Positions 2,260 to 54,166 of a stretch of 55,485 nucleotides of DNA are shown in pieces. Every line of letters starts with the position of its first letter. The stretch's first letter is position 1. Origin of the DNA: Chiloscyllium plagiosum (Eukaryota); assembly GCF_004010195.1 (NCBI RefSeq), contig NC_057758.1, positions 9,358,623-9,414,107 of the forward strand, read 5' to 3'. Both the position numbers and the translations under genes were made by a program. The notes beneath the pieces are model-generated. The model searched no databases and was not told the origin of the DNA. It saw nothing but the letters and a program-made list of their open reading frames with translations.

Positions 2260-2386
2260 TCCTGAAGAAGGACTTATGCCCGAAACGTCGATTCTTCTGT
2301 TCCTTGGATGCTGCCTGATCTGCTGCGCTTTTCCAGCAACACATTTTCAGCTCTGATCTCCAGCATCTGCGGTCCTCACTTTCTCC
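2260..2386 (+). mobile_element. Short PLE-derived terminal-repeat insertion with minimal hammerhead motif
   Basis: 14-bp TSD CCATAGCATTAGAT (2246-2259 / 2387-2400); CTGAAGA-A-GGAC-TTAT-GCCC-GAAA-CGTC at 2262-2289. Confidence 0.85.
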
Positions 2387-2450
2387 CCATAGCATTAGAT
2401 GCCATCAGAGTGAAAATGTATTTTTTTAATTAGGACCGTACTAAGTGCAA

Positions 2451-2499
2451 CCAATGATATGAAATAATTGTGTCTCTAGAGGTGAATACCAGATATAAA
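2451..2499 (+). promoter_or_regulatory. Candidate CCAAT (2451-2455) and TATA box (TATAAA 2494-2499) of GPCR gene A
   Basis: Motifs lie about 110 and 65 nt upstream of the exon-1 ATG; motif match only. Confidence 0.45.
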
Positions 2500-2561
2500 T
2501 ACGTGCAGCACAATGCTTACTTCAAAAGCCAGATGGTAATAATTCATTATTCTCACAGAAA

Positions 2562-2631
2562 ATGCATGCTCCTGCAAGAGCGCCGATATTTGTACTTTAT
2601 TACTCAGCCCTTGCTACTTTCGGAGTTCCAG
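2562..2631 (+). CDS. GPR139-like GPCR gene A, coding exon 1 (MHAPARAPIFVLYYSALATFGVP)
   Basis: ATG at 2562, YY..L...G.P TM1 motif, phase-1 donor G|GTAAAT; joins in frame to 4400 giving GVP-A-NLVT. Confidence 0.9.
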
Positions 2632-3144
2632 GTAAATTATGAGAATACAGTATTATTGACATACTGATGTTTAAAAGTGCGTTTGTGGAATAGTTGGGGA
2701 TTGATTATATCCTCAGCTGATTGATAAAGATTTCATTTAATCAGTGAAACATCGTAATACCCTTAACCTTTTTGTTGTTCTTGCTGAAGTAAACGTTAGC
2801 TGACTTTCTGAGTCAGTGAACAATGGCAATCAATGGTGTTCATTCTAGTTTCGAAGGTTTTTTTTTAATATTCCCAATCTGGTTCATTCAGATGTTTATG
2901 ACGGATGTTTTAGCGATCATATCTACTTTATGTAATTTACTTTATTTCTTTATGACCATTTTTTTTTCATTTCTAGTCTTTGTTTTGTACACGTTCGTGG
3001 AAGAAGTGCACCATTGGTTGGGTCAGCACGTATTAGCCAACCCTAGCTTCCCTTCTGAAGATGGTGATTAAATTGTCGTTTTGAACCACTGCAGTTCCCT
3101 TTATGCGATTGTTCCGAAGTGTTGTTCAGGAATACTTAAGGAGT

Positions 3145-3344
3145 CGGAAAATATAGCGTTGGAAAAGCACAGGAGGTGAGGCAGTATCTGAGGAGATGGA
3201 GTATCAGGCATAAGCACATCCTGATGAAGGGCTTATACTCGAAACGTCTACTATCCAGCTCCTGGTATGCTGCCTGATATGCCATGTTTTCCAGTGCCAC
3301 ACTTCAGCACTGGCTGTCCAGCGTCTGCAGCCCTCACTTTCTCC
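3145..3344 (+). mobile_element. Degenerate palindromic PLE-derived short element in the gene A intron
   Basis: Imperfect inverted arms; CTGATGA-A-GGGC-TTAT-ACTC-GAAA-CGTC at 3221-3248; ends in CTCACTTTCTCC like the other copies. Confidence 0.7.
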
Positions 3345-4399
3345 GAGGTAATTACAGGGTACTGAAATGTTGACATTGAAGGAGTGGTAATATGTTTCCA
3401 GGTCGTGGTGAGGAGTAAATTGAAGGAGACCTTGCAGGTGCTGGTATTGCAAATGATCTTCTTTCCTTCCCCCTCTGTCAGCGATTGTCCACGGGTTTAG
3501 CGTGTTCTTTCTTCAGGGTCTTTGTAAATTCGTGCAGCGCATCTTGGAGATGATACAGACAGCCGCGAATTTCACTTACTTCTGAAGGAAGTGAATGTTC
3601 ATTTAGATGTTGACAACCAATAGGGCTACGCATTTTCCTGAGAAACAGTGAAGATTGTTGTTGGAACTATACACGTCCAGTAACCATTACATTGCACACC
3701 TACTGCCATACAGAAGATGTGCAAGTAGTGAAGATTCATTAACTGAAAAACGCAAGCATGTTCTCTGCTATCTTGATTTGCGATGCCAAATGCCTCGCAC
3801 GTGAGTGGCGCGAGTATTTCCTACTTCACAGTCCTACTGCAATTCAACGTGGTCTGTTTCTGAATCTAATGAGCTGTGAATTATATTTTCGTAAGTGAAT
3901 GCCTGAGATCTGTCTGTAACTTGAGGGAAAGATTGTTGATGAAACAATTAAAGTGGATTTCGTCTTGTTGATACAGTTATTGTCATTGTTTACTATGATC
4001 GGATATGATTCAATATGCTTTCCCTCACCATTATAGCATCGCTACTCCAAATTCCGGTTGTGAAATGAAGTTCAATTCATGACATTTATTTATTATAGCA
4101 AGGCACTAAGCAGGAAGATTCTGAAGAAACTTTCTTTCCTGTGTTCAGTTTTTCTTTGGGATCAACATTTTCATTCGTGACCCTTCGGAAATACATGCTC
4201 AAACACTTATTTTCGTTTTGAATCCAACATAACTGTTACAAATTGCATGTTATCCTTTCGCCAAATGAACAATGCCATTTTCCATTTCATCTGTCTATCT
4301 GTAAGTTTCTCTCTCTCTGTCTCTGTCTCTACTTGTCTGTCCGTCTCACTCAATCTCTCCCTCTCACACTCATTTTATCTCGCACTCTGTCTCTTACAG

Positions 4400-5310
4400 C
4401 CAACCTGGTGACAATAGCTATACTCTCCCGAGGAAGATGTGGGCTCTCAGGATGCATCACTCGATATCTAATTTCCATGGCGGCCACAGATCTCCTTGTT
4501 ATTATCGCTGCAGTGATTTTAAGTCGGCTTCTGGCAATTTACTTTCCAGCTAGTTTAATAAACGCCACAACAGGATGTCGTCTCATAATTCTTCTTGTCT
4601 ACGCTTCCCGAAACTGCTCTGTCTGGTTGACTGTCGCTTTCACCTTTGATCGGTTCATAACCATTTGTTACCAGAAGCAGAAAACGAAATACTGTACAGA
4701 GAAAGTAGCATCTTTCGTTATAGCAATCGTCTGCGTGCTGTGCTGTTCAGTAAACATTCCATTTTACTTCATATATGAGCCCTTATATACCATTGATAGC
4801 GTAGGCTGGTACTGCAACATTAAGGAGATCTTTTACACATCTGTTGTTTGGAGAATGCTTGAAACTTTAGACCGTATTCAAACTCCATGTCTACCGTTCG
4901 TCCTTATTTTACTCCTTAATGCACTGACTGTCAGACACATCATAGCTGCTGGTAGATCCCGCAGGAGACTCCGATCCCACAGCAATGAAAATAATAAGCG
5001 TGACACAGAAATGGAGAGCAGGAGAAAGTCCATCATCTTACTCTTTGCAATCTCAGGCAGTTTCCTGCTGTTGTGGTTGACGTACATTGTGTATTTTCTA
5101 TTTGTGAAGATTTCAGGGAACAGATTTTTAATCGGTTCCAATCTCAATGATCCCAAATTTATTCTGCAGGAAAGCGGGTACATGCTGCAACTCTTAAGTT
5201 CATGCACGAACACGTGCATTTATGCAGTGACACAGACAAAATTTCGAGGTCAGTTGAAAGATGCTTTCAACTACTTCTCCAAACTGATGACGAAATGTCA
5301 TAAACAGTGA
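4400..5310 (+). CDS. GPR139-like class A GPCR gene A, coding exon 2 (326 aa spliced)
   Basis: CT-rich tract and CTCTTACAG acceptor (AG 4398-4399); 7TM pattern with MAATDLL, SVWLTVAFTFDRF, LPFVLILLLN, NTCIY, KFR; stop TGA at 5308-5310. The first 52 aa of the ORF-track entry are intronic. Confidence 0.93.
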
Positions 5311-5729: not shown

Positions 5730-6210
5730 ATATAATTCTCGTTAAGATTGTGACTTGACTTCCTGAGGGCTTCATACCTCTGAATTGTAGAAGACACCAT
5801 CTGGATTGCATTTCAAATGCAACTTTCTGTCAAACATCACAGTCTGAGAGTCATAGAGCTGTGCATCACAGAAACAGACACTTCGGTCAAATTGGGAGAA
5901 AGTGAGGACTGCAGATGCTGAAGAAGGGCTTATGCACGAAACGTCAATTCTCCTGCTCCTTGGATGCTGCCTGACCTGCTGCGCTTTTCCAGCCACACAT
6001 TTTTCAGCTCTGATCTCCAGCATCTGCAGTCCCCACTTTCTCCCAGTTTGACCGAAGTGTCTGTTTCTGTGATGCACAGCTCTATGACTCTCAGACTCTG
6101 TGATGTTTGACAGAAAGTTGCATTTGAAATGCAATCCAGATCGTGTCTTCTACAATTCAGAGGTATGAAGCCCTCAGGAAGTCAAATCACAATCTTAACG
6201 AGAATTATAT
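5730..6210. repeat. Inverted repeat, about 190-bp arms (5730-5920 / 6018-6210)
   Basis: Arms are reverse complements with about 4 substitutions and one 2-bp indel. Confidence 0.95.
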
Positions 6211-6236
6211 GCGCTTTTCCAGCAACACATTTTTCA
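5895..6236 (+). mobile_element. Composite hammerhead-bearing short-element insertion containing an inverted copy of the upstream flank
   Basis: 15-bp TSD ACTTCGGTCAAATTG (5880-5894 / 6237-6251) within a minus-strand CR1 tail; hammerhead motif at 5918-5945. Confidence 0.8.
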
Positions 6237-8744
6237 ACTTCGGTCAAATTGCCCATACTGACCAGACATCCAAAATGAATGTACTCCCGTTTACCAGCAC
6301 TTGGCCCATATCCCTCTACACATTTTCTGTTGAAAATTCCAACCAGATGCCTTTAAAACGTGATTGTACCAGGCTCTGTCACTTCCTCTTGCAGCTCAGC
6401 CCATAAATGCACCATCAGCTCTGTGAAAATGTTGCCCTTTACGCCCCTTCCACTCTCACCCGAAACCTATGTCCTCCATGTCTGGATCCGCCCAATCTAG
6501 GGAAAGGATCTTGTCTATTTATCCTATCCATGCATCTCATGATCTTAAAAACCTCTATAATGTAACCCCTCAGCCAGCGAAACTCCAGGGAAGATAGCCT
6601 CAGTATACTCAGCCTCCCCCTTTTGCTCAAATCCTCAACGCTGACAACAAACTTCTCAAACTTTACTGAGCCCTTTCAAGTTTCTCAACATCTGTCCGAT
6701 GGTTGGGACAACAGAATTGCCTCTAGTGTTCCAAAAGTTGCCTTAGCAATGTCCTGTACAGCCGAAACACGAACTCCCAACTCCAGTTCTCAATGTACTA
6801 ACAAGAAGTGAGCATCCTGAAAAGAAAATGAGCTCGGAAAGGGCTTATGGAGAGTGATAGAGAAACAAGCACACGCAGTACATCAAAATAGGCTCAGCGG
6901 ATAACCAAAAGAGTACAAGGATTAAGGAAAGTAAATGAACAGAAATAATAGAATTGATAGCCGCAATTATAATGACGAATTCCATTAACTCCATGCATTT
7001 ATTCAGTTATCTGTCAAATGATGGAGTAAACAATAAACTTTTGTCTGACATCCTTTCAAAGTTTATATGTTGTCAAGATGACAACCACTTGATTTTTTTC
7101 CCTAAACGATATGAAAAAATTGTTTAAATTGCATCATTATTTACATTTCGTTACCACTCTGAGATAAAATAATTTCGCTTTTTTAATATTGTTGAGCGAA
7201 GCAGCCAAGGTGTCTTAAGATCAATTTTGAAAATTTAAGTAGCCCTAATGTCGTAAATGCTTCTTCATTTGACCGATTCGTCTGTTGATGGGTTTCAATT
7301 CTTTAGAACTTTTGTTCAATGGAATTTTGAAGCTAATATTAATCAGGAGGAAGCTGTAGATGAGACCGATCCAAGTAAAGTCGGTGATTGGAGCTGTATG
7401 TGTGAGTCTATGTAAGGGAGCGTTATGACATTTGTTGTGAACTAGATGTAAATTTTGTTTACACAGTTTTGATTCCAAGTCTCAGGTTCAATTTCGGTCA
7501 AATTGGCCATACTGACCATACATCCAAACTGAATGTACTCCCGTTTACCAGCACTTGGCCCATATCCCTCCACACACTTTCTGTTGAAAATTCCAACCAG
7601 ATGCCTTTAAAACGTGATTGTACCAGGCTCGGTCACTTCCTCTTGCAGCTCAGCCCATAAATGCACCATCAGCACTGTGAAATGTTGCCCTTTACGCCCC
7701 TTCCACTCTCACCCGAAACCTATGTCCTCCATGTCTGGATCCGCCCAATCTATGGAAAGGACTTTGTCTATTTACCCTATCCATGCATCTCATGATCTTA
7801 AAAACCTCTGTAATGTAACCCCTCAGCCAGCGAAACTCCAGGGAAGATAGCCTCAGTCTACTCAGCCTCCCCCTTTTGCTCAAATCCTCCAACGCTGACA
7901 ACAAACTTCTCAATCTTTACTGAGCCCTTTCAAGTTTCTCAACATCCGTCAAATGGTTGGGACCACAGAATTGCCTCTAGTGTTCCAAAAGTTGCCTTAG
8001 CAATGTCCTGTACAGCCGAAACACGAACTCCCAACTCCAGTTCTCAATGTACTAACAAGAAGCGAGCATCCTGAAAAGAAAATGAGCTCGGAAAGGGCTT
8101 ATGGAGAGTAATAGAGAAAAAAGCACATGCAGTACATCAAAATAGGCTCAGCAGATAACCAAAAAAGGGTACAAGGATTAAGGAAAGTAAATGAACAGAA
8201 ATAATAGAATTGATAGCCGCAATTATAATGACTAATTCCATTAACTCCATGCATTTATTCAGTTATCTATCAAATGATGGAGTAAACAATAAACTTTTGT
8301 CTGACATCCTTTCAAAGTTCATATGTTGTCAAGATGACAACCACTTGAATTTTTTCCCTAAACGATATGAAAAAATTGTTTAAATTGCATCATTATTTAC
8401 ATTTCATTGCCACTCTGAGATAAAATAATTTCGCTTTTTTAATATTGTTGAGCGAAGCAGCCAAGGTGTCTGAAGATCAATTTTGAAAATTTAAGTAGCC
8501 CTAATGTCGTAAATGCTTCTTCATTTGACCGATTCGTCTGTTGATGGGTTTCAATTCTTTAGAACTTTTGTTCAATGGAATTTTGAAGCTAATATTAATC
8601 AGGAGGAAGCTGTAGATGAGACCGATCCAAGTAAAGTCGGTGATTGGAGCTGTATGTGTGAGTCTATGTAAGGGAGCGTTATGACATTTGTTGTGAACTA
8701 GATGTAAATTTTGTTTACACAGTTTTGATTCTAAGTCTCAGGTT
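6233..8744. repeat. Tandem duplication, about 1.25-kb unit (6233-7488 / 7487-8744), each with a minus-strand CR1 3' fragment plus unique DNA
   Basis: Near-identical sequence at an offset of about 1254-1256; paired ORFs 6439-6630 and 7692-7913. Confidence 0.95.
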
Positions 8745-11455: not shown

Positions 11456-13331
11456 CGAAGAACATAAGAACAAAGATAACATATAGCCTAGGAACAGTCC
11501 CTTCGGCTTTCCAAGCCTGAGCTGATCCAAATCCACTGTCTAAACTATCACTCAGGATCTGTAGCTCTCTGCTCCCACCTACGCATTCAACTGTCCAGAT
11601 GCAACTTAAATTAATCTTCCGTGCCTGCCTCGACTACCTCTGCTGGCAACGTGTTCCAGGTACCGACCTACCTTTGTGTAAAGTACTTTCCGCGTGTATC
11701 CCCCTTAAACCTTTCACCTCTCACCTTGAACGCGTGACCTCTCGTTACTGAGCCCCTCACTCTGTGTAAAAGCGTATGTCTACCGACCTTGTTTGCATCC
11801 TTCATGATTTTGTAGACTTCAATCAGGTCCCCCCTCAATCTCCTTTTTCCGAATGAAAGCAATCCTAACCTACTCAAACTCTCTTCATAGCTAGCACCTT
11901 CCATATCAGGCAACATCCTCGCAAACCTTCTCTGCACCTTCTCCAAAGCATCCACATCCTTTTGGCAATGTGACGACCAGACTGTGCACAGTATTCTAAA
12001 TGTGGACGAAAATACAATTTAACATGTCCCGCCAGCTTTTATACTCAGTACCCCATCCGAAGAATACAAGCCTATCATATGCCTTCTTGACCACTCTATC
12101 CACATGTGCAGTCACCTTCAGGGTACTATGAACCTGAACTCCCAGATCTCTCTGCTCATCAACTGTTCCCAAAGCTCCTCGGTTTACAGTATAGTTTTCA
12201 CCTGAATAAGACTTCCCAAAATGCATCACCACGCAGTTGCCTGGATTAAACTCCGTCTGCCATTTCTCCATGCAACTGTCCAGCTTATCTATGTTCTCTT
12301 GTATTCTTTGATAGTCCGCTATGCTTTCTGCTACTCCACAAATCTTCGTGTGATCTTCAAACTTACTGATCAAACTAGCAATGCCCTCTTCCAGATCATT
12401 TATGTATATCATACACAACAGTGGCCCCAGCACTGATCCATGTGGAACACAACTGGGTACCTTTCTCCATTTCGAGAAATTCCCTTCAACTACCATTCAC
12501 TGCCTCCTGTTGCTCAACCAGTTCTTTATCCACCTAGCTAGAACACGATGCACACCATGTGACTTCGCTTTCTCCATTAATTTACCATGGGGAACCTTAT
12601 CAAACGCCTTACTGAAGTCCATGTATATGACATCTACAGCTCTTCCTTCATCTATCAACTTGGTTACTTCATGCAAGAACTCTATTAAGTTGGTAAGGCA
12701 CTATCTCCCCCGCAAAAAAACCGTGTTGCCTATCATCGATAAGCACATTATTTTCCAAAATAAATCGATATTATCTCTCTGTACGTTTTCCAGAAACTTT
12801 CCCACCACTGACATCAGGCCCACTGGTCTGTAGTTACCTGGAATATCGCTACTACTCTTCTTGTTCAGGGGGACAACTTGAGCAACCCTCTAGTCTTCTG
12901 CCACTTCACCTGTGTTTAAGGATGCTGCAAAGATATCTGTCAGGAGCCCCATGTCTACGAGTATTGTAAAACTTACAAAATTGTGGTCACTATTCCCAAA
13001 GAATCACCCCCACCCCCACACACAACCCACCACCACCCCCTGCAACATCTACCAAGTGGCCTGGCTCATTCCCAAACACCATGTACAATATGGTCCCTTC
13101 CCTCATCGGACTATTGACATACTGCTCTAGAAAACTTTTCTGGATTGCCTTACAAGTTCCGCCCCATCCGATCCTCTGATATGAAGTGTATCCCAGTCAG
13201 TGCTGCGAAAATTAAAATCTCCCATCACAACACCCCTGTTGCCTCTAAAACTTTCCATAATCTGTTTATCTACTTGTTCTTCTACCTCACGCTCACTGGT
13301 GGCATCCCGGTAGTAGAGCCCCAGCTATGTA

Positions 13332-13484: not shown

Positions 13485-14439
13485 CTCGAAAGTATCCTCC
13501 TTTAGCACAGCCTTGATATCATACACGACCAGCAATGCTATTCTTTCCACCGTCCCCCCTTTTACTTCTCGACCTGTCCTGTCTGAAGCGTCTATATCCT
13601 CGAACATTTAGTTTCCAAACATGCTCTTCCTTCAACCAAGACTCTGTGACCTTAATATCGTCATACTCCCAGTGGTAACAGTCGCTGAAGGACCTGAACT
13701 GAAGGGAATTTATATTTGCCAGGAATTGGTGTTGGAGACACTGTTAGGTCTGAAGGCTGATAAGTCCCGAGGGCCTGATAGTCTGCATCCCAGGGTTCTG
13801 AAGGAGGTGGCTCGAGAAATCGTGGATGCTTTGGTGATTATTTTCCAGAGTTCGATAGATTCAGGATCTCCGTATTTTCTGCAGTAGCCTACCATGGGGA
13901 ACCTTATCAAACGCCTTACTAAAATCCATATATACCACATCTACCGCTTTCCCCTCATCAACCTCCTTCGTCACCTTTTCAAAGAATTCAATAAGGTTTG
14001 TGAGGCACGACCTGCCCTTCACAAAACCATGCTGACTATCCTTGATCAAAAATTTCTCGATAGTTTCCTCCTTTAGCACAGCCATGATATCATACACGAC
14101 CAGCAATGCTATTCCTTACACCGTCCCCCCTTTTACTTCTCTACCTGTCCTGTCTGAAGCGTCTATATCTTCGAACATTTAGTTTCCAAACATGCTCTTC
14201 CTTCAACCAAGACTCTGTGACCTCAATATCGTCATACTCCCAGTGGTAACAGTCGCTGAAGGACCTGAACTGAAGGGAATTTATATTTGCCAGGAATTGG
14301 TGTTGGAGACACTGTTAGGTCTGAAGGCTGATAAGTCCCGAGGGCCTGATAGTCTGCATCCCAGGGTTCTGAAGGAGGTGGCTCGAGAAATCGTGGATGC
14401 TTTGGTGATTATTTTCCAGAGTTCGATAGATTCAGGATC
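13480..14439. repeat. 389-bp direct duplication (13480-13868 / 14051-14439) flanking a 182-bp minus-strand CR1 RT fragment
   Basis: ORFs 13621 and 14192 share identical N-termini; offset 571; spacer encodes SQHGFVKGRSCLTNL..DFSKAFDKVPH. Confidence 0.92.
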
Positions 14440-15895
14440 AGTTCCTGTGGATTGGAGGGTGGCTAATGTTGTACCACTTTTTAAGAAAGGAGCGAGAGAG
14501 AAAACAGGAAATTATAGACCAGTTAGTCTAAACTCAGTGGTGGGAAAGATGCTGGAGTGTATTATAAAGGATGAAATTACGACTCATCTGAATAGCAGTA
14601 ACAGGATAGGTCAGAGTCAGCATGGATTTATGAAGGGGGAATCATGCTTGACTAATCTTCTGGAATTGTTTGTGGATGTAACTCTGAAGATGGACAAGGG
14701 AGATCCAGTGGATGTAATGTGCCTGGACTTTCAGAAAGCCTTTGATAAAGTCCCACATAGGAGGTTAGTGAGCAAAATTAGGGCGCACGGTATTGGGGGC
14801 AAACTACTGAATTGGATTGAAAATTGGCTGGCTGACAGGAAACAAAGGGTAGTGATAAACGGCTCCCTTTTGCAATGGCAGGCAGTGACCAGTGGGATAC
14901 CGCAGGGATCAGTGATGGGACCCCAGCTTTTTACAATATATAGTAATAATATAGAAGATGGTATTAATAGCAACATTAGCAAATTTACTGATGATACAAA
15001 GTTGGGTGGCAGGTTGAAATGTGAGGAGGATGTTAGGAGAAAACAGGGTGACCTAAGAGGTTAGGTGAGTGGACAGATGCATGGCAGATGCAGTTTAATG
15101 TGGATAAATGTATGGTTACCCACTTTGGTGGCAAGAACAGGAAGGCAGATTACTACCTCAATGGAATCAATTTAGGTAAAGGGGCAGAACAGAGAGATCT
15201 GGGTATTCTTGTACACCAATCAATGAAGGCAAGCATGCAGGTACAGCAGGTAGTGAAGAAAGCTAATAGCGTGCTGGCCTTCATAACAGGACGAATTGAG
15301 TAGAGAAGCAAAGAGATTTTTCTGCAGCTGGACAGGGCCATGGTGAGACTGCACCTGAAATATTGTGTGCAGTTCTGATTTCCAAATTTGAGGAAAGACA
15401 TTCTGGCTACTGAGGGAGTGCACTAGGTCAATTCCTGGAATGGCGGGACTACCTTACGCTGAAAGACTGGAGCGACTGGGCTTGTATACCCTTGAGTTTA
15501 GAAGACTGAGAGGGGATCTGATTGAGACGTATAAGATTATGAAAGGATTGGACACTCTGGAGGCAGGAAACATGTTTCCGCTGATGGGTGAGTCCTGAAC
15601 CAGAGGACACAGCTTAAACATAAGGGGTAGGCCACTTAGGACAGCGATGAGGAGAAACGTCTTCACCCAGAGAGTGGTGGGTCTTTGGAATGCTCTGCCC
15701 CAGAGGGCAGTGGAGACCCCAGTCTCTGGATTCGTTTAAGAGTGAGTTGGATAGAGCTCTCAAGGATAGTGGAATCAAGGGTTATGGAGATAAGGCAGGA
15801 ACAGGATACGGATTGAGGACGAATATAATGAATGGTGGTGCAGCCTCGAAGGGCAGAATGGCCTACTCCTGCACCTATTGTCTATTGTCTATTGT
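14241..15895 (+). mobile_element. 5'-truncated CR1 LINE (RT to 3' tail)
   Basis: GPDSLHPRVLKE, NYRPVSL, DFQKAFDKVPH, PQGSVMGP, KFTDD; (CTATTGT)3 tail. Confidence 0.93.
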
Positions 15896-18800: not shown

Positions 18801-20860
18801 TGGAAACGCTACAAATCGAGTACATCGGATGGATCAGTTTTTGTCCAATGTATGTAGGAGTGTTTCTTGACACAGAATGTCGAAGAGCCGACAAGAGGGG
18901 AGGCTACACAGGATCTGGTACTTGGTGAACACTTTGGAGGGAGTGACCATAAAGTGGTTACTTTTAGTTCAGAGATGGAAAGGAGAGGGACCAGTGTTAT
19001 AGATAGGGAAAGGACAATTATAATGCGTTTAGGCAAGACACAGGAGGCATAGAATGGGACAGCAAAATGAATGGGATGGCGACAATCGAAATGTGCAGCT
19101 GGTTTAAGTTGCAGATATTCAGAGTCTTTGTCAGGTATGTCCCTGTCAGGAAGGGAGGAAGTGGTAATGCAAGGAACCGTGTATTACTAAAGAAATTGCA
19201 ACTCTTGGTAAGCAGGAGAGGGAAGCTTATGTGAAGTTGAGGTGAGATTGCTCAGATGAGGCGAGGTAAGTTACAATGTAGCTGGAAAAGATTTAAGGAG
19301 AGAGTGAGAAGAGCAAGGAGGGGATATGAGCAGTCTTGAACGGGTAGAATGAAGAAGGACACTCAAGCTTTCCATAGCTATGTGAGGAATAAAACTCGGG
19401 TTGCAATCGGCGTGACGAAATGAGAAGTTGTGTGGAGATCCTGTGGAGATCAGAGAGTTGAGAAGCGAATATGTCTCATCTGTTTCCACTCACGAAAAGG
19501 AGAATATTGTAGAGAAGGCTGAGATAAGGGCTATTAGAGTAGGTGTAATCAATTCGAGAAGTTGTGAAAGTAGATAAGACCGCTGTGCCGGTTGGCAGTA
19601 ATCCAAGAATTCTCTGGGAAGATAGGCAGGAGACAGCTGAGACTTTGACATTGATATTTGAGACGCCATTGTCTACAGGTTTAGTACAAGGGGACTGGAG
19701 TCTTGTAAATGTTGTGTCTTTGTTCAAGAAGCGCAGTCGAGGTGACCCAAGTAATTATAGATCAGTGAGCCTAACGTCTGATGAAGGAAAAGGTTTGGAA
19801 AGGATTTTGAGAGATAGGACGTATTCTCATCTAGCAAGCAACGATTTGATTGGAAATGTTTGAGAAGTTGACAAAGCATGTGAATGAGGGTAGGGCAGTT
19901 CACGAGGTGTACGTGGACTTCAGTAAAGTCTTCGATACGATTCCACATGGTACGGTAAAGGAGAAATCTAGCAAGCAACGATTTGAAGGTGATTTCGCAA
20001 TTTCGATTAGAAAGTGGCTTTCTGTGAGAAGGCAACGAGTGGTGATTGATGGAAAATACTTAGCCTGGAGTCTGGTTTCTGTGGTGTGCCACAAGGATTT
20101 GTTTTGGGACCTTTGCTGTTTGTGATTTTTATAAACGACTTGGATGGATGCATAGGTGGCTGGGTCAGTAAGTTTGGAGATGATACTAAAGTCGGTGGAA
20201 CTGTGGACAATGTGGAAGAATGTTATAGGTTGCAGGGAGACTTGGATAAACTGCAGAATTGGGCTGAGAGGTGGCAAATAGAGTTCAGTGCAGCGAAATG
20301 TGAGGTGATTCACTTTGTGAAGAATAACAGGAAGGAAGAATACTGGGTCAATGGAAAGACTTCTGATAGTGTGGATGAGCAGAGGGATGTGGATATCTAT
20401 GCACATTTTTACTGTAAGTTGCCACCCACGTTGACACTGCTGTTAAGAAGGCATACGGTGTGTTAAGCTTTAGTGGAAGAGGGATTGATTTCTGGAGTCA
20501 TGATGTCTGCTGCAACTGTTCAAAACACACTGCGTCCTCACTTGGAGTATTATGTGCAGTTATGCTCCCTATATTAGAGGAAGGATGTGGATGTATTGGA
20601 AAAGGTGCAGAGGAGATTTACTGGACTTTGCCTGGTATGAATCATCTGTCTTATGAGGAAAGGCTCAGGGAATTGGGTCTGTTCTCCTTGGAGAGACGTA
20701 GACTAAGTGGGATTAAATAGAGGCATACAAGATGTTCAGGTGATTCGGTAGGGTGCACATTGAGAATCTTTTTCGCAGATAATGATATCTGCTTGTACGA
20801 GGGAATGCACTGCACGAGGTGATAGTTGTGGTTCTGTTCGCCGAGCTGGGAATTTGTGTT

Positions 20861-26210: not shown

Positions 26211-26214
26211 ACTA

Positions 26215-34065: not shown

Positions 34066-37000
34066 CAAATTTGTACTGGCCCCCGGCACACCCCTTTAAA
34101 TTTATGACGGAAGCCTTCTCAAAATTGATGGTTCTTGGTGCCCGTCATACAATTAAAAGGGGAGACTTTAATTGTATTATGGATCCGGAAATAGATAGGA
34201 TTCCCAAGAGTACTGCAGGAGTATCTCCCAGATCTAGACAATTGGTGGATCTGAACAAAGAATTAGGATTAGTAGATGTATGGAGATGTCTTCATCCACA
34301 GGGCAGAGATTTTTCTTTTTACTCTAATCCACACAAATGTCATACCAGAATTGATATGATTTTTGCCCCCTCAATTTTTTAAAATTCCATATCATTTTAT
34401 AAAATAGGTAGTATAGCAATTTCCAACCACGCTGCTGTATATATGGAAATCAAGGCGAAGAACAACAGGACATCCCCTCGGCATTGGCGTATGGACCCGT
34501 TCCTGATGAAAGATAGTAAATTTGTAAAGTACTTCTCTCAAGAATTTAAAACTTTTTTAGAAATTAATTTAGGTACGGTTAAATTATGTGGGAGACCATC
34601 AAAGCTTACGCGCAATGTTTGATCATCTCCTACTCAGCGACCCAGAAAAAAGTAAAGGGAGAACAACAGCGTCTGCTCGAAGCTCGCTTAAAAGCAGCTG
34701 AAACAGCATACGCTGGTAGACCTTCTATTATCAAATTGCAAAGGATTACGGACCTTGGGAAATCTCTAAACACCACGCTTACCCAAACGGCTAAGAGGGA
34801 AATATTATTTGCAAAACAAAGGTTATATGAATTTGGCGACAAGCCGGGTAGATACTTAGCATTTCTTGCAAAGAAAAAAAAGGCCCCTCAAACTGTCACG
34901 TCTATCAAAGAAAGTACGGGTATTCTGACTCATGATCATAAAAGGATTAATACAATCTTTTGAAAATTTTATTCTGATTTATATGAATCGCAGGATTGTG
35001 AAGACAGGACTAGGAGGATGCAATCATTTTTAAATAAATTTGACGTTTCCGGGTCTAACTCTGGAACAGGTATCGGTCTTAAATGCTCTCCTAACAGTCC
35101 AAGAAATACTTGACGCAATCAGGCAATTTCAGAGCGGTAAGTCACGTGGCCCAGATGGTTTTCAAGCTGAATTCTATAAAGAATTTACAAAAATATTTGC
35201 TGGCCCACTTATGGACATGTATAACTATGCATAAAGTCAGGGCTGTCTCCCGCCTTTGCTGAAAGAGGCAAATATCTCTCTTATCCTTGAAAAAGGAAAG
35301 GGTCCAGAAGATTGTGCGTCATACAGACCAATATCCTTGCTAAATGTAGATTTTAAAATCCTTTCTAAAACGTTAGCATTGAGACTAGAAAGGGTACTGC
35401 CACAAATCATAAAGGAGGATCAGATGGGGTTTATTAAGGGCCGTAGATCATCCAATAATATTAGAAGGGTTTTGAATATGATTCAAGCCTGCCATCAGGG
35501 AAAGATACCAGGAGTAGTAGTCTCATTAGACGCGGAAAAGGCATTCAATAGGGTTGAATGGTCATATTTGTTTTACACATTGGAAAGGTTTGGCCTTGGA
35601 AAGGTGTTTACCAAATGGGTCTCAACATTGTATAGTGATCCGAAAGCAGTTGTGGTTACCAATGGATTAGGTTCGGATAGCTTCAATCTGGGTAGGGGCT
35701 GCTGTCAGGAATGTTCTCTCTCTCGCCATTGTTATTTACGCTAATAATTGAACCACTAGCAGAAGCTATACGGGCTGATCCTAATATAGTGGCCCCAAGG
35801 ATTGGTACAGGTAAGCATAAAATTACCCTGTATGCAGATGATGTTCTTCTCTTCCTCAGTAATCCTCTGATGGCCGTGCCTCGCTTTATCCAAGTTATTA
35901 ATACATTTACCGCATTCTCAGGCTATATAATTAATTTCTGAAAATCGGAGGCTATGCATACTGACCAGTATTTGGTCAATTATACAAGGCTACATTTATG
36001 CATTTACTAGAAAGGATAAGGCAGGACCTCCAGCGATGGGGAGACCTTCCAATTTCCTGGCTGGGTAGAATAGCACTAATTAAAATGAATGTCCTGCCCC
36101 GTCTCCTATACCCTATGAGAATGCTTCCGGTGATGCTGCCGAGGCTGGCACTACGTAAGTTATATGGCTGGTTGGGTTCCTTTATCTCGAATCATAGACG
36201 GCCCCTCATTAAGCTGAAGAAGCTACAGCTTCCACAGACAAGGGGAGGATTGAACTGCTCAGATTTTAGGAAATGTCAGTTAAGTTCCCCATTAATTTAC
36301 ATAGCTGATTGGGTCTTGTCTGACCCTCAATCAATCTGGCTGAACGTCGAGGCTTCTCAAGTAAAATGCCCACTTATTAACCTTTTATTTTCAGACAAGA
36401 GGAAAGTCATTACAGATTACTGCAAAAACCCTATAATACTAAACAGAATTAAAGCTTGGAATATAATGCGGCAAAATGAGGGCAACTCACATAAAACATC
36501 CCCCTATACGTCGATAGTGGGAGCATGGGGATTCCAACCGGGGTTTACAGATGCCACTTTTAAAGTCTGGAGATCCAGGGGTATCTCATGTCTAGGGGAC
36601 CTATTTAAAGATGGGGTCCTGATGTTTTTTGAACAGCTGCATCAGAAATTCAGATCACCTAATGGAGACCACTTTCGATACTTCCAAATTCGAAATTATA
36701 TACAGAAGAAGAATACGTTATTAGATAGTCTTTATAAATCAAATAGAGAATGTAGAGTACTACTACCAATGGGTGTATCTTCCATCAATACTATTAATCA
36801 TTTACTACATGATGAAGTATCGGGAGATATGGACAATCTGCTTAAAACATGGGATCAGGATCTGGGACTAGAAATCTCTATAGAAACGTGGAATGACATT
36901 TGGGAAAACGCCAGAAGAATCACCATCTGTAACAGAACTCAGGCTATCCAGCTGAAGATACTTCATAGGACCCATATAGCACCGGACGATTGGCAAAATT

Positions 37001-37160
37001 TAAGGCAGGAGCACCTCCAATGTGTCCCAAATGTAAAATAGAGGTGGGCACTCTTGTACATTGCTTATGGACCTGTCATAAGATCTGTAGATATTGGACT
37101 AAAGTAGCAAGTACCCTGACAGAAAGTTTCGGAACGGAAATTAAAGTGGACCCTGTATCT
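34066..37160 (+). mobile_element. L1-clade ORF2 fragment (endonuclease C-terminal half, RT, CCHC region), disrupted
   Basis: GDFNC, TRIDM, GPDGF, SYRPISLLNVDFKIL, SLDAEKAF, LYADD, GRIALIKMNVLP, CPKC..HCLWTC. Confidence 0.93.
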
Positions 37161-39697: not shown

Positions 39698-41385
39698 ATA
39701 GAACATAGAACATAGAAAAGTACAGCACAGAACAGGGCCTTAGGCCCACAATGTTGTGCTGTGGATTAATCCTAATGTAAGAATAATATAACTTAACCTA
39801 ATCACCTTCCAACTCACTGCAGTCCAAGTTCATGTCCAGCAGTCGCTTAAATGTCCCAATGACTCTGCTTCCACCATCTCTGCTGGCAACGCATTGCATG
39901 CATTCACAACTCTCTGCATAAAGAACCTGCCTCTGATGCCCACTCCATACCTTTCTCCTAATCTCTTAAAACTATGACCCCTCGTGCCAGTCAATCCTGC
40001 CCTGGGGAAAAGTCTCTGGCATTGACAATTTCCATGCCTCTCATTATCTTGTGTAACTCGATCAGGTCACTTCTCTTCTGCCTTCTCTCCAGAGACAAAA
40101 TTCCGAGCTTATTCAAACTCTCTTCATAAGGCAAGTCCTCAAGTCCAGGCAGCATCCTGGTAAACGTTCATTGCAACCTCTCCAAAACCTCAATATCTTT
40201 CCTACAGTCGGGCGACCAGAACTGTACACAATATTCCAAGTGTGGTCTCACCAGACACTTGTAGAGCTGGAACTAAACTTCGCGGCCCTTAAACACGATC
40301 CCCCCGTTAATGAAAAGCCAAAATACCATATGCTTTTTTAACAAACCTATCCACATGGGCGGTAACTTTGAGGGATCTATGTACTTGAACACCAAGATCC
40401 TTCTGCTCCTCCACACTGCCAAGAATCCTGTCTTTAATCCTATATTCCGCATTCGAGTTCGACCTTCCAAAATGCATCACTTCACATTTATCCAGGTTGA
40501 ACTCCATCTGCCATTTCTCAGCCCAGCTCTGCATTCTGTTTATGTCACGCTGCGAGGCAAAAGTGAGGACTCCAGATGCTGGAAACCAGAGTTTAGATCA
40601 GAGTGTGGTGGAAAAGCAAATCATGTCCGGCTGCATCCGTGGAGCAGGAAAATCGACGATTTGAATTCTATCCCTGATGAGGGGCTTTTGCCCGAAACGT
40701 CGATTTTCCTGCTCCTCCGATGCTGTCGGACATGATGTGCTTTTCCAGCACCACTCTGATCTAAACTATGTCGCGCTGCAGCCTGCAGTAGCACTCGATA
40801 CTATCAACGGTTCCTCCAACCGTTGTGTCATCTGCAAATTTACTAACCCATACCTCAAACTCCTCATCCAAGTCATTTATAAAAACTACAAAGAGCAGAA
40901 GCCCAAGAACAGAGCCCACGGGACCCCATTCACCGACCTCCAGGCAGAATACTTTCCATCTACATCCACTCTCTGCCTTCTGTCAGCCAGCCAATTCTGA
41001 ATCCAGACCGTCAAATCTCCCTCTATCTCATACTTCCTGACTTCATGAATGAATCTACCATGGGGAACCTTATCAAATGACTTTCTGAAGTCCATATACA
41101 GCACATCCGCTGCTCGACTTTCGTCGACCTATCTTGTTACCTCCTTAATGAACTCAATAAAATTTGTGAGCCATGACCTGCCCCTCACAAAACCATGCTG
41201 ACTGCCTTTACCCACGCTACGCTTTTCCAAATAGTCATAAATCCTACCGCTCAGAATTCTTCCCAAAATTTTGCTGACCTCAGATGCAAGACTGTCTGGT
41301 CTGTAATTGCCACGGAATTCCCTATTTCCCTTCTTGAAAAGTGGAGCAACATCCACCTCCTTCCAATCCTCTTGGTACGACTCCA
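39698..41385 (-). mobile_element. 5'-truncated CR1 LINE
   Basis: (ATAGAAC)n tail; WAEKWQMEFNLDKC, DFRKSFDKVPHGR, SQHGFVRGRS. Confidence 0.9.
40554..40766 (+). mobile_element. Palindromic PLE-derived short element with an intact hammerhead core (40674-40701)
   Basis: 13-bp TSD TATGTC(A/G)CGCTGC (40541-40553 / 40767-40779); inverted arms; CUGAUGA-G-GGGC-UUUU-GCCC-GAAA-CGUC. Confidence 0.85.
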
Positions 41386-45537: not shown

Positions 45538-45542
45538 TGATC

Positions 45543-46080
45543 AAAGTTTGTGAAAAGATTTGTAGCTCGGGTGCTCGTTGTTGTGGTTTTGTTCGCCGAG
45601 CTGGGAATCTGTGTTGCAGACGTTTCGTCCTCTGTCTAGCTGACATCCTCAGTGCTTGGGAGCCTCCTGCGAAGCGCTTCTGTGATGTTTGCTCCGGCAT
45701 TTATAGTGGTTTGAATCTGCCGCTTCCGGTTATCAGTTCCAGCTGTCCGTTGCAGTGGTCGGTATATTGGGTCCAGGTCGATGTGTTTATTCATTGAATC
45801 TGTGGATTAGTGCCATGCCTCGAGGAATTTCCTGGCTGTTCTCTGTTTGGCTTGTCCTATAATAGTAGTGTTGTCCCAGTCGAATTCATGTTGGTTGTCA
45901 TCTGCGTGTGTGGCTAGTAAGGATAGCTGGTCGTGTCATTTCGTGGCTAGTTGGTGTGAATGGATGCGGATCGTTAGCTGTCTTCCTCTTTGTCCTATGC
46001 AGTGTGTTTGTGCAGTCCTTGCATGGGATTTTGTACACTACATTGTTTTTTCTCATGTTGGCTATCGGGTCCTTCCTGAC
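45543..46080 (-). mobile_element. Penelope/Poseidon-like 3' fragment with a hammerhead motif (45616-45655)
   Basis: Reverse complement of about 22270-22801. Confidence 0.88.
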
Positions 46081-49010: not shown

Positions 49011-49920
49011 ACTGAATTCACCACAAAGGTATACGGGAAAGCCACACACACAGACTAATTCCTGAACTACGAAAGCAACCACCCCAACACACACAAAAGA
49101 AGTTGCATCAAGACACTATTCAAAAGGGCCACAACACACTGCAGTACACCACGACTGCAAAAAGAGGAAGAAGAACACCTATACAATGTATTCATCAAAA
49201 ACGGATATCCCTGCAATTTCATCAACAGATGCCTAAGGGAAAGACAACGGAATGAGGGCATGCCACAACCCAAAGGACTAGCCACATTACCATACATCAA
49301 GAGTATTTCTGAACTGACAGCCAGACTACTGCGACCACTAGGACTCATAATAGCACACAAACCAACAGCCACTCTCAGACAACAACTCACCAGGACGAAG
49401 GACCCGAAACCCAGCATGAGCAATACCAATGTAGTGTACAAAATCCCATGCAAGGACTGCACAAAACACGACATAGAACAAACAGGAAGACATCTAACGA
49501 TCCGCATTCATGAACACCAACTAGCCACGAAACGACACGACCTTAGGCAGCCACACACGCAGATGACAATCAACATGAATGCGACTGGGTCAACACTATT
49601 ATTATAGGACAAGCCAAACAGAGAACAGCCAGGGAATTCCTAGAGGCATGGCACTCATCCACAGATTCAATCAATAAGCACATCGATCTGGACCCAATAT
49701 ACCGACCACTACAATGGACAGCTGGAGCTGACAACCGGAAGCGGCAGATTCAAACCACTATAAATGCTGGAGGAAACATCACAGAAGCGCATCACAGGAG
49801 GCTGCCAAGCACTGAGGATGTCAACGAGACGGGGACGAAACGTCTGCAACACAGATTCCCAGCTTGGCGAACAGAACCACAACAATGAGCACCCGAGCTA
49901 CAAATCTTCTCACAAACTTT
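49011..49920 (+). mobile_element. Penelope/Poseidon-like 3' fragment (GIY-YIG) with a hammerhead motif (49809-49847)
   Basis: ATLPYIKSISE, VVYKIPCKDC..QTGR..RIHEH. Confidence 0.9.
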
Positions 49921-49924
49921 ATTA

Positions 49925-51090
49925 TCTGAATACTAACAGTTTCAGGAAAAGTGAGGTGCGACGAGACCTGGCTATTATGGTGGAATGTTGGTTGAACTTT
50001 GGCATGGAGGTGCAGCAGGCAGTGAGTAAAGCAAATTGCACGCTAGCCCTCATAGGAAGAGCGGTGAGTATCGGCGTAACGCTGTCTTGCCGCACTTATA
50101 CAGGGCCTGGGTGAGGCCAGATCTGGAGTACTGCATACAGATTTCATCTCCTCGGCTGAGGACGGATATTCTTCCTCTTGAGGCAGTCAAGCAATTGTTC
50201 GACAGACTGATTCTCAGGATGGCAGTGATGATATGTGTGGAAAGTCGAAAAGTTTGATGATAGAAAAAGCACAGTATGTCAGGCAGCATCCAATGAGCAG
50301 GAGAATTGACGTCTCATATGTGGTTCATCGAGAATTTGCAGGGGCAAGACAGTGAGACATAAATTGGTGAGGAGTGTGCATGAGGGGGCCTTAGGAAGGA
50401 TGATGATATTTGGATATAGGTAGAAAGTGATTTGATACATTGGTGGGAAGAATGGATTGGATGGGTGTGAAGGAAGCTGGGCAGGTTGGTCAAGTCAAAA
50501 GGGCGGTGTCGAGTTGGATGGTTTGACCTGTGATGAGATGGGAAGAGGGGAGATGAGGGAAATGGTGAAATGGACATTGATTCCGTGCGTTTGGACAGTC
50601 CCAAGCAGAAGATGAGATTCCGTTCTTTCAGTTGGCGGGTGGCTTTGCTTTGGCAGTGAATGAAGGACAGAAAAGATTGATTCGACTGGGCTTATATTTA
50701 CTGGAATTGAGAAGAATGATGGGCAGTGTCACAGAAATATATGAGATCCCTATGGAGCTGGATACGTTAGATTCGGGAAAAGTGTTGCTGATGTTAGTGA
50801 TGTTGATGAAGTCTAGAAGTGGGGATCAGAGTCTGATAATAAGGAGTATGCCAGTCAGGGTTGAGATGAGGAAGAATTTCACCATTCAGAGAGTTGTGAA
50901 CTGTTGAATTCTCTCCCGTAGGTTGTTGTTCCGGCCAGTTCATTAGATACATTCAAGTAGATATGAGGAGAGGGTGGTAATGAGATACTGAGGTTTAATG
51001 ATCAGCCATGACTCTATCTTATGATGTTGCGGGCTGGAAGGACTGAATGCTCTACTTCTGCATCCATTATCTAAATTTCTATGTTTCTAA
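49925..51090 (+). mobile_element. Old CR1 3' fragment, interrupted
   Basis: LYRAWVRPDLEYCIQ..LEAV; RLGLYLLELRR. Confidence 0.7.
50240..50650 (-). mobile_element. Neptune-like PLE 3' fragment joined to the short-element sequence
   Basis: Minus strand reads ATRQLKERNLIFCLG / TVQTHGINVHF (frameshifted GIY-YIG C-terminus), then a pyrimidine-rich UTR, then GACGTCAATTCTCCTGCTC..GGATGCTGCCTGAC. Confidence 0.65.
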
Positions 51091-51544: not shown

Positions 51545-51599
51545 AGCTATGTCCACCGCCAGTCAGTGTCTTCCTGTTCCTACATAATTCACTGAGAAA

Positions 51600-51669
51600 A
51601 TGGATAAAACAGTAATAATGCTGGTCAAAGAGTTTTACTACCCGATTATTGCAATCATCGGTATACCTG
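51600..51669 (+). CDS. GPR139-like GPCR gene B, coding exon 1 (MDKTVIMLVKEFYYPIIAIIGIP)
   Basis: AAAATGG start, YYP..A..G.P motif, phase-1 donor G|GTGAGT. Confidence 0.92.
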
Positions 51670-52149
51670 GTGAGTGATTACTGTCTGTTTCTTTATATAT
51701 GCGATGATATGGATGTGTTGGTGTTGAACTGGGATGGAAAAACTCAGAAGTCAAACGACACCAGGATATTTTCAGGTGTCTTCACCTAATTACGAGCAGT
51801 GCTCCAAAAGCTTGTGATTTCAAATAAACCTGTTGAACACTAAACTGATGTCGTCTGACTTATGATTAAGTAATTGGTAATGACTATTGCATTTTTCCTA
51901 CTATAAAACAGAAAGGTCATGGTTTCTGCAGAATAAGGCTTCTAAATCCGCTCGTCAGGTGAGAAAACATTCTTTTCGATCATGCTGCATCTGCCTTAAT
52001 AAAATAACATTACTCCAGTTGCAATATTTTTGAAATTACTGCACAAATGTTTTAGTAGCGTTGCGTATCACTCTGTGCAGTTCAGACTGAGGTTATAATG
52101 GTATTTCAGGTATCTATGGTATTTATAAAATGGTAATGGGATATATAAA

Positions 52150-52580
52150 ATGTGCAGAGGAGATTTACCAGGATGTTGCCTGGAATGGAGAATAGGTCAC
52201 ACGAGGAAAAGTTGAGAGTGCTAGGCCTTTTGTCATTGGAACGGCGAAGGATGAGGGGTGTCTTGATAGAGGTTTATAAGATGATCAGGGAATAGATAGA
52301 GTAGACAGTGAGAGACTTTTCCCTGGGTACAACAGAGTGTTACAAGGGGACATACATTTAAGGTGAAGGGTGGAAGGTATAGGGAGGATGTCATGGGTAG
52401 GTTCTTTCCCCAGAGATTGGTGGGGGCATGGAATGTGCTGCCTGTGGGAGTGGCAGAGTCAGAATCATTGGTGACCTTTAAGTGGCAATTGGATAGGTAC
52501 ATGGATAGATGCTTAAGCTAGCACAACATCGTGGGCCGAAGGGCCTGTTCTGTGCTGTATTGTTCTATGTTGTATATCTA
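52150..52580 (+). mobile_element. CR1 3' fragment in the gene B intron
   Basis: VQRRFTRMLPG coding remnant; GGGCCGAAGGGCCTGTTCTGTGCTGT..TTCTATG tail. Confidence 0.88.
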
Positions 52581-52740
52581 TGTATCACTTTCAGTGCAAT
52601 GTCCAGATAATGACCTTCATTGTTCAATTCTTTTTCATATTGATGCTCAGTAAATGGAATAAATTATTCTCAGCAAGTGCTTCTTAATAAATGGCAATCA
52701 GTTGTTAAAACATGTCTAATCTTGTCTCTCCTCCTTACAG

Positions 52741-53651
52741 CAAATGTGATGACACTTATAATTCTGTCTCGAAGGAACTGTGGTGTTTCTAAATGCATGT
52801 CGGTTTACATGGCAGGCATGGCCTCAGCGGATCTAATGATTATTTTCATTGACGTAATCTTATACCGCATTTTCAGTTTTCATTTTCCATTTTCATTCTT
52901 GTCACATACTCCAGTGTGCAGGACGATTTTATATACAATGATTTCCAGCGTTGACTTATCTGTTTGGTTCACAGTTTCCTTCACATTTGACCGTTTTGCA
53001 GCCATCTTTGATCCGAAATTTAAACGAAGATTCTGCACCCCAAGAAATGCTGGCGTAGTAATAACAACGTTCTCTTTTGTCAGTTTTCTCAAGAATATTC
53101 CGACTTTGTTTGCGTATGAAAACCAACAAATAATTGACGGAGTGCAGTGGGGATGTCAGTCAAGTGCGGATTTTTTTTTCTCACCACCAGGTATAGCTTT
53201 CGTTTGGTTTCACAGCAGCTGGGTCGTTTGGGTTCCTTTCACACTGATTCTCCTGTTTAATTCTTTGACCATACGCTCTATTCTACTGGCCAATAGAATA
53301 CGCCAAGCCCTCAAAAGTTGTAGCAATAAAAATTGCAGTGATCCAGAGATTGAGAACCGGAAGAAATCCATCATTCTATTGTTCTCTGTGTCAGGTTGCT
53401 TCATATTGTTTTGGTTGACAGCTTCCGTGAGCTTTGTGTCAACTAGAATATCAAACACCACTTATTACAAAGGCGACTACAATGATCCAGGATATATCGC
53501 CCATGAAGCAGGGACATTGCTGAAATTTTTGATTTGTTTACAGAACCCATTCATTTATGTAATAACCCAGAGGAAATTCAGAAATGCACTGAAAAATATG
53601 ATGAGATGTCTCTGGCCATTAATGTTGAGACCAGTTGGGAAATGGAACTAA
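52741..53651 (+). CDS. GPR139-like class A GPCR gene B, coding exon 2 (326 aa spliced)
   Basis: CTCCTTACAG acceptor ending at 52740; MASADL, SVWFTVSFTFDRF, VPFTLILLFN, NPFIY, KFR; stop TAA; AATAAA at 53658-53663. Confidence 0.93.
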
Positions 53652-53951
53652 AAGTAAAATAAAAATTCTAACAAATGAATTTCATTTGCATAGCTTTTTT
53701 AAAAAATCATTGCGTGTCTTGCTTTGTTGTGTTTCGTAAAAATGCATGAATTATTTTTCTCATAGTTATTTTATTTTGTAACAGATGTTGTTGTCTTTAT
53801 TAGTTGAATTCCACTTCTCCAACCTGCTTGCAGGTTCATCGTGACAGCAAAAGCAACATCTGCTGAAGTTCGCCATTCAGTCCGTCCATTCTGCTCTGCC
53901 ATTCAAGGAAGTGATGTTTCATATTTCCACAGTCTTGTCATTTCTCCATGA

Positions 53952-54166
53952 GCTGGAAATGTGTTGCTGGAAAAGCGCATCAGGTCAGGCAGCATCCAGG
54001 GAACAGGAGAATCGACGTTTCGGGCATAAGCCCTTCCTGAAGAAGGGCTTATGCCCAAAACGTCGATTCTCCTGTTCCATGGATGCTGCCTGACCTGCTG
54101 CGCTTTTCCAGCAACACATTTCCAGCTCTGATCTCCAGCATCTGCAGACCTCACTTTCTCCTCAAA
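53952..54166 (+). mobile_element. Palindromic PLE-derived short element with back-to-back hammerhead remnants
   Basis: 13-bp TSD CATTTCTCCATGA (53939-53951 / 54167-54179); near-perfect arms about 53950-54035 / 54043-54128. Confidence 0.88.

Follow-up and report, generated by a model that had tools for sequence, protein, structure and literature searches.

The 55,485-nucleotide stretch of the Chiloscyllium plagiosum genome analysed here (contig NC_057758.1, positions 9,358,623 to 9,414,107; hereafter the window) carries six short non-coding units built around a minimal hammerhead ribozyme motif, and raises the question of what such units are and what sets their ends. The preliminary description of the window had offered two answers: a ribozyme-defined, retrozyme-like non-autonomous element, or extreme truncations of a Penelope-like element (PLE). 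We find that the insertions are stub copies of a hammerhead-bearing PLE terminal repeat and not a separate ribozyme element, and that the hammerhead does not set their ends.

Our genome sample comprised 160 stretches of 10 kb at fixed coordinates of the 3.56-Gb genome (1.54 Mb readable, 62 kb N). It held 304 unit arms in 230 clusters, which extrapolates to about 5×10^5 insertions genome-wide, related subfamilies included. Among the 30 best genomic matches of the unit, several continue upstream through a C-rich region and one reaches a reverse transcriptase (RT)-like frame (Pfam RVT_1, E 1.4e-4, below the curated cut-off), for which a first look returned 33,737 candidate matches in the genome. 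In 11 of the 12 best RT-matching loci the unit lies downstream of the RT in the same orientation, the 127-nt unit being their 3′ end. The unit also precedes the open reading frame (ORF): its tail is followed by a leader, with the ATG about 38 nt past the tail, and the same repeat stands on both sides of the ORF, as a pseudo-long terminal repeat (pLTR) does. A tail and an adjacent inverted copy are present, matching a feature of endonuclease-bearing (EN+) PLEs, in which the tail is optional and 30–40 nt long. Since the unit stands both at the end of RT-bearing copies and ahead of the ORF, we take it to be a pLTR end with its tail. Two decayed copies, L121 and L137, contain a CX4CxxC linker ahead of a GIY-YIG-like stretch; GIY-YIG-like residues, a CxxC and two His were recognised there by eye, and no profile matched the region. 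A CX2-5CxxC linker between RT and EN is given as a mark of Neptune elements in the available text of PMC8557442. On these sequence features, the units are almost certainly the ends of a Neptune-type PLE, and the tie to PLE terminal repeats drawn in the preliminary description was right. Two further features of the coding region were seen: in the near-full-length decayed copy L121 the N-terminal part of the ORF contains a low-complexity stretch rich in Thr/Ala/Ser/Pro (L121:3900–4700), and in L204 a 42-codon upstream ORF begins inside the unit (position 49 on) and runs across the main ATG in another frame.

Short and long copies do not fall into separate lineages. The comparison covered 185 arms, of which 124 were short and 61 long (nine with masked upstream sequence being classed as long). 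Both kinds of copy occur in seven of the ten commonest loop-II variants, the five largest among them, and only one of 71 positions, a CpG site, differs between short and long arms at p < 0.01. Nearest neighbours agreed in label at a rate of 0.58, compared with 0.555 after shuffling (p 0.29). Because short and long copies share subfamilies, the units are not a separate non-autonomous family.

The 5′ ends provided the central observation. We number the unit from 1 (window 2260) to 127 (window 2386), with the CUGA core starting at 3; the numbering has a position 0, −1 lies two bases ahead of 1, and the predicted hammerhead cut falls between 30 and 31. After removal of arms at stretch edges, with masked upstream sequence or without a 3′ part, 250 of 316 arms were kept. 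Their starts are non-random, as the preliminary description had anticipated: 134 of the 250 unmasked arms begin at −8 to +15. Stops per base at risk amount to 0.097 at −8 to −1, compared with 0.003–0.005 beyond −30 and about 0.006 at 16–47, a 20–30-fold excess. The pile-up sits at unit −2/−1, which is 4 nt ahead of the core and precedes the ribozyme cut site by about 31 nt, and 40 of 65 young arms start in this zone; since young copies show the excess too, divergent upstream sequence cannot explain it. Eight of the 51 non-inverted short starts are actually long copies of older subfamilies. Around the cut itself (28–33) we counted 14 starts, against the 134 at −8 to +15, and two among the 65 young arms. 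With stops concentrated at −8 to −1 and few near the cut, the ends are neither random nor set by the ribozyme, and because the boundary lies upstream of the cut, the copies keep an uncut core. In a sister family, short copies mostly start 4 nt before the core as well, at the same boundary. The description of the units as extreme PLE truncations thus holds for their origin and fails in the sense of ordinary random truncation, the stop being a fixed base; a ribozyme-defined retrozyme-like element is not supported, given the position of the boundary, the lack of head-to-tail tandems in the window and the lack of a lineage of its own.

The hammerhead itself is no chance motif: we found 79 matches to the minimal motif in the readable sample and none in each of five shuffles. 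The core tested, CUGANGA plus GAAA-C-G-UH with helix II, holds at the level of the family, and main-family variation centres on N7 and loop II (0.947 in the core, 0.774 in the loop, 0.892 downstream). Clustering of arms on positions 31–83 gave a single cluster, and sister families were compared instead. In one of them (L233–L240; 1001 exact genome matches, control 0), C3-G8 is changed to U3-A8, helix II has 5 bp, and helices I and II are re-paired; the U3-A8 covariation is known from Schistosoma PLEs (PMC4209133, available portion). Because variation sits at N7 and loop II and the sister family covaries, the hammerhead is, by this pattern, a fold under selection in the master elements. Computational searches for the structure were negative: an Rfam scan of the window returned eight matches at E ≤ 5, with no hammerhead family and only sub-threshold hairpin families, and five unit copies folded no better than their shuffles (z −1.2 to 0.3). 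When two copies were co-folded, the minimum-energy form lacked the ACGU dimer helix III, a weakly informative result given how short this helix is. Minimal hammerheads of this type cleave weakly in vitro. Lunse et al. in 2017 reportedly described cleavage of PLE hammerheads as dimers. The anole hammerhead cleaves only with protein and is dispensable for insertion, according to the accessible text of PMC11167929. An ACGT palindrome in the unit 24–31 region lies at +28 to +31 from the inferred start and is shared with the RGACGTGY element, a downstream promoter element in Drosophila Penelope as described in the available text of PMC2377424; the palindrome may have a double use, in ribozyme and promoter. 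In the sister family it is displaced by 3 nt.

Unit 3′ ends are bimodal, falling at 127 and at about 84–98, some 35 nt apart, which we refer to as tail and no-tail ends. Among 60 head-to-head pairs of arms, 52 could be classified, and 46 of these combine one tail with one no-tail arm (p 4e-9). A target-site duplication (TSD) flanks 37 of the 60 pairs, and 28 of these TSDs are 14–16 bp long. For the anole element, two internal priming sites and the use of uncut RNA as substrate are reported in vitro (PMC11167929, in the part accessible to us).

The clue to how the ends arise came from partial tandems. Thirty loci found by the leader yielded 20 distinct arrangements of unit, leader/ORF fragment and unit; one was a duplicate and nine were incomplete in range. 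In none of the 20 tandems does the outer 5′ end reach past the inner restart by over 4 nt in the upstream direction (permutation p 8e-5), and in 11 of the 20 the outer and inner starts fall within 6 nt of each other, including pairs at −88/−88, −34/−34 and −108/−113 (p 1e-5). A second set of 29 further loci was picked by ORF sequence. Here the downstream unit restarts at −5 to 0 in 15 of 18 unmasked cases, with the ORF cut 267–511 nt past the tail, and outer starts lie at −1 or later in 12 of 12. As outer and inner ends agree and the restart base is fixed, we read these tandems as run-off at the RNA 5′ end followed by a jump to the 3′ end. Tandem formation by deletion after insertion was rejected: it would neither restart at one base nor match outer to inner ends. 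The junctions are copy-specific; among 40 scored, that of L082 had one exact match and that of L232 two. L082 (2119–2727, minus strand) is a complete small insertion with a 16-bp TSD, consisting of an inverted arm and then two hammerhead units, 324 nt apart and joined by 135 nt of leader, apparently a retrozyme-like dimer produced in a single event.

Signals around the boundary resemble those of a promoter. Of 46 long copies, 38 have a TTAT starting at −32 to −26 and four have it elsewhere, across a variable spacer (50% pairwise identity); a strict TATA pattern had matched 19 of 53 long copies, a set partly chosen by motif, and the 46-copy count was made without that choice. In the sister family, three long copies carry a TATAAATA/AATAAATA box at −31 to −33 ahead of the pile-up. 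Positions −3 to +3 read TCATTCC, which we take to be initiator-like by consensus. A TATA- and initiator (Inr)-like pair is described in a rotifer pLTR (PMC3846280), and an internal promoter of Inr and downstream promoter element (DPE) in Drosophila Penelope (PMC2377424), both in the available portions of these papers. The boundary was also considered as a splice acceptor and rejected, since no AG precedes −1 and an AG near −24 is lost in older subfamilies. A G precedes the −1 junction in 15 of 21 cases; for junctions elsewhere the figure is 16 of 66 (p 1.5e-4). A copied cap could give such an extra G, as in work on L1. RNA evidence comprised 1942 reads from one poly(A) single-cell run, on both strands, 93% of which continue into unlike flanks; depth was 1–15 over the leader versus 300–800 over the unit and mostly represents read-through of dispersed copies. 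A second raw RNA run gave zero matching reads.

We propose the following sequence of steps. The TATA-like box at about −30 and the initiator-like TCATTCC would start transcription at the pile-up base. The enzyme would nick both target strands, 14–16 bp apart; one side would be primed at the tail site and the other at the no-tail site, giving single or head-to-head double arms. These priming sites would be internal, about 93 and 128 nt from the likely capped 5′ end of the RNA. Most complementary DNAs (cDNAs) would then run off the RNA 5′ end and be joined to the target as stubs, while some would jump to that RNA's 3′ end for a second round of copying, yielding partial tandems of unit, ORF and unit; a jump on a whole RNA would produce a full element copy. 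The stubs are likely dead ends because the upstream box and the sequence past the tail are missing from them.

That the stubs are internally primed cDNAs that ran off a capped RNA 5′ end is, in our assessment, probable. The complete cycle, modelled on long terminal repeat (LTR) elements, is a bolder proposal, to which we give slightly less than an even chance: strong-stop cDNA made near the capped 5′ end must jump to the 3′ end, this jump gives rise to pLTRs and partial tandems, one insertion event uses the tail site on one target strand and the no-tail site on the other, and the stubs, in their hundreds of thousands, are integrated strong-stop products whose jump failed. Several observations weigh against these proposals. 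The outer and inner starts of the first tandem set were read by hand from BLAST ends; the permutation test on the second set (6 of 7 pairs, p 1.0) is uninformative; and 6 of the 18 jump junctions in that set start at −2 with C. The main-family box, TTTATCT, is a weak TATA match, about six or seven of the extra Gs could, by eye, be templated by the adjacent arm, ORF or TSD, and no sharp transcript start or end appears in the 1942 reads of the one RNA run. TSDs accompany just 18 of 108 short solo arms. Stops near the cut number 14 versus 7.7 expected (p 0.026, post hoc). Finally, in two families of differing sequence the boundary falls at the 5′ edge of helix I, and an imperfect palindrome at −5 to +12 overlaps it, so a structural stop may operate there.

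This last point leads to an alternative in which the RNA of the same element continues beyond the boundary on the 5′ side, and the hammerhead, through helix I, a bound protein or the palindrome, makes the enzyme stall or fold back. Fold-back would suit the inverted arm that adjoins 83 of 135 short-start arms, the window copy at 5895, which has folded back into its own flank, and the palindromes at inverted junctions in rotifers, interpreted as self-priming in the available text of PMC3846280. We nevertheless consider it unlikely: the second hammerhead-bearing family of the window, with an equivalent hammerhead, lacks the pile-up (1 of 16 arms), tandems with both ends at −88, −34 or −32 require physical RNA ends, and the extra G at the junction, the conserved box at promoter distance and the failure of the unit to fold better than shuffles also speak against it. 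A physical 5′ end could instead stem from RNA processing unrelated to the hammerhead, for example an uncapped fragment left by 3′ cleavage of a tandem transcript past a poly(A)-like signal. The sister box does read AATAAA or TATAAA, and the main boundary comes after CA, which poly(A) 3′-end cleavage often follows. The main-family TTTATCT, however, is not AATAAA-like, a spacing of 31 nt fits a TATA box better, and the G excess is consistent with a cap; we regard this origin as improbable.

We judge it just as improbable that the stubs are a self-propagating non-autonomous family, either retrozyme monomers or elements resembling short interspersed nuclear elements (SINEs), cut by the hammerhead or driven by a promoter of their own. 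Very high copy number, small two-hammerhead tandems such as L082, one tandem junction found twice, and the derivation of animal retrozymes from pLTRs stated in the accessible text of bioRxiv 10.64898/2026.07.22.740005 would all suit such a family. It is largely refuted by ends that differ from the cut site, by the mixing of long and short copies among loop-II variants and nearest neighbours, by junctions that vary between copies, that of L082 being unique among those scored, and by window units that are not tandems. That the 5′ ends reflect ordinary random truncation, lacking any favoured stop, is hardly credible, provided that the alignment ends are no artefact: long copies do stop at a flat low rate upstream of −30, and yet the stop excess at −8 to −1, in young copies too, and the restart of tandems at one base are left unaccounted for. 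Run-off from a capped 5′ end remains our preferred account of the stubs.

Comparison of the window sequence places all six units at the positions given in the preliminary description, and the arm starts at 2260, 5918 and 54035 agree with it, as do four TSDs of 13–15 bp. TSD scores never exceeded 8 across 150 random intervals, and nothing beyond this background was found at 3145 and 27031. The full motif said to be common to all six units is not: core and helix II are retained in two only, at 27154 (minus strand) and 40674, with helix I damaged in both; helix II is disrupted in the cores at 2262, 3221 and 5918, and G12 is mutated in that at 54037. The reported size range of 130–215 bp is accounted for by head-to-head double arms, which make up four of the six units, and does not cover the insertion at 5895, which measures 342 bp (5895–6236). 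A seventh, partial arm had been overlooked (50265–50315, minus strand, unit 23–73).

The unit at 2260–2386 (plus strand), defined by alignment and TSD, is a single arm spanning unit 1–127 with tail; its core (2262–2289) has one helix II mismatch. Its 14-bp TSD occupies 2246–2259 and 2387–2400, and the final AT of the left copy also matches unit −1 and 0. The next insertion combines a decayed inverted arm without tail (3147–3218, minus strand; BLAST covers 3147–3194, the remainder was assigned by eye) with an older forward arm spanning unit 1–127 (3219–3344, plus strand; core 3221–3248, helix II broken), which is 77% identical to the 2260 copy and has no TSD above background. The insertion at 5895 is flanked by a 15-bp TSD (5880–5894 and 6237–6251). 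It begins with an inverted tail alone (5895–5924, minus strand, unit 127 to 98), followed by a forward arm spanning unit 3–127 (5918–6043, plus strand; core 5918–5945, helix II broken). Within the same TSD pair, 6045–6210 (minus strand) is an inverted copy of the left flank 5730–5894, an instance of fold-back copying, and a short unit piece (6210–6236, plus strand, unit 65 to about 91) ends at the no-tail site beside the right TSD. With 165 bp of left host flank present inverted inside it (window 5730–6251), this copy shows that insertion can duplicate neighbouring host DNA.

At 27032–27160 (minus strand) lies a single older arm whose core (27154–27127) and helix II are intact and whose helix I 3′ strand is lost; its candidate TSD of 6 bp is at background level. 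The insertion at 40554, with a 13-bp TSD with one mismatch (40541–40553 and 40767–40779), pairs an inverted arm with tail that extends to unit 24 and has no core (40554–40661, minus strand) with a forward arm without tail (40672–40766, plus strand; core 40674–40701 and helix II intact). The last unit, within a 13-bp TSD (53939–53951 and 54167–54179), pairs an inverted arm without tail (53952–54036, minus strand, unit about 92 to 8) with a forward arm spanning unit 1–127 with tail (54035–54161, plus strand; core 54037–54064, G12 changed to A).

The second hammerhead-bearing Penelope-like family occupies 489–756, 20825–21351 (minus strand), 21891–22801, 45539–46075 (minus strand) and 49015–49920. 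It has a longer helix II, with cores at 22693, 49812, 45652 (minus) and 20897 (minus), and endonuclease-like ORF remnants for which a Pfam search gave no match; its 3′ ends are also bimodal, at 73–78 and 105–108 nt from the core. Elsewhere, two intronless ORFs for seven-transmembrane receptors of the rhodopsin family lie at 4222–5310 and 52644–53651 (PF00001, E about 1e-18), and the insertions at 5895 and 53952 are less than 600 bp downstream of them. Remnants of long interspersed nuclear elements (LINEs) comprise stretches at 11996–12833, 14183–15064 and 19900–20442, with RT fragments (PF00078) at 14183 and 35235, and an element of about 6 kb with ORF1-like and RT ORFs at 31200–37041. A direct duplication of about 1.25 kb with 96–98% identity lies at 6233–8462.

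The literature already covers the pLTR, the tail, the inverted copy, solitary minimal hammerheads and internal priming; the element class is known, and what is new is the mechanistic clue. Our search of the literature, which did not extend to subscription-only papers, supplements, Repbase or Dfam, found no description of run-off and jump for Penelope elements, and an earlier published one is possible. How PLEs build pLTRs, partial tandems and inverted ends, and what role the hammerhead has, is an open question in the accessible text of PMC8557442 and PMC11167929, and this genome is a very large natural archive of insertion products with base-precise ends. If true, run-off and jump would account for thousands of solitary minimal hammerheads in animals without ribozyme cleavage, would offer an origin of retrozyme-like tandems at insertion, and would yield predictions that apply directly to the in vitro system already in use.

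As far as the available portions of PMC8557442 and PMC3846280 describe them, EN+ PLEs of the Neptune type share with the present element the RT, the Cys linker and a GIY-YIG-like region, here recognised by eye, as well as a repeat with minimal hammerhead, a tail of 30–40 nt at one end, an inverted copy, partial tandems and TSDs. The present element differs from those examples in that stubs with a fixed 5′ base prevail and ORF-cut tandems restart at that base, and its TSDs peak at 14–16 bp, those of the rotifer examples being 8–10 bp. Poseidon of Anolis carolinensis (PAc), in the accessible part of PMC11167929, likewise has two internal, tail-defining priming sites near the RNA 5′ end, and resembles the mechanism proposed here in the nicking and extension of both strands, an uncut RNA substrate and a dispensable hammerhead. 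PAc belongs to a different clade, and its ORF starts inside the hammerhead, whereas here it starts about 165 nt after the inferred start; the same text indicates no strand difference in start site, while our pairs are nearly always one of each.

The minimal type I hammerheads of metazoan PLEs (PMC4209133, available text) are alike in having only the palindromic ACGU as helix III, an unpaired base before helix II, a short helix I, mostly single dispersed motifs with some opposite-strand pairs, and a U3-A8 variant; the predicted helix II of the present unit has 4 bp, compared with 7–8 bp in the Schistosoma families. Animal non-LTR retrozymes, in the portions of PMC7229834 and bioRxiv 10.64898/2026.07.22.740005 open to us, are also non-coding, with a type I hammerhead, kinship to pLTRs and large TSDs. 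They form head-to-tail tandems with a cut-to-cut monomer and circularise, whereas the present units are single or head-to-head, measure about 127 nt and start ahead of the cut. As retrozymes, the window units fail on the head-to-tail tandem form and on ends at the cut site. In LTR elements, minus-strand strong-stop DNA is primed near the RNA 5′ end, runs off and jumps to the 3′ end in the first strand transfer. The cycle proposed here would work in the same way, a likeness of operation and not of membership, with nicked target DNA instead of a tRNA as primer and with a run-off product that integrates.

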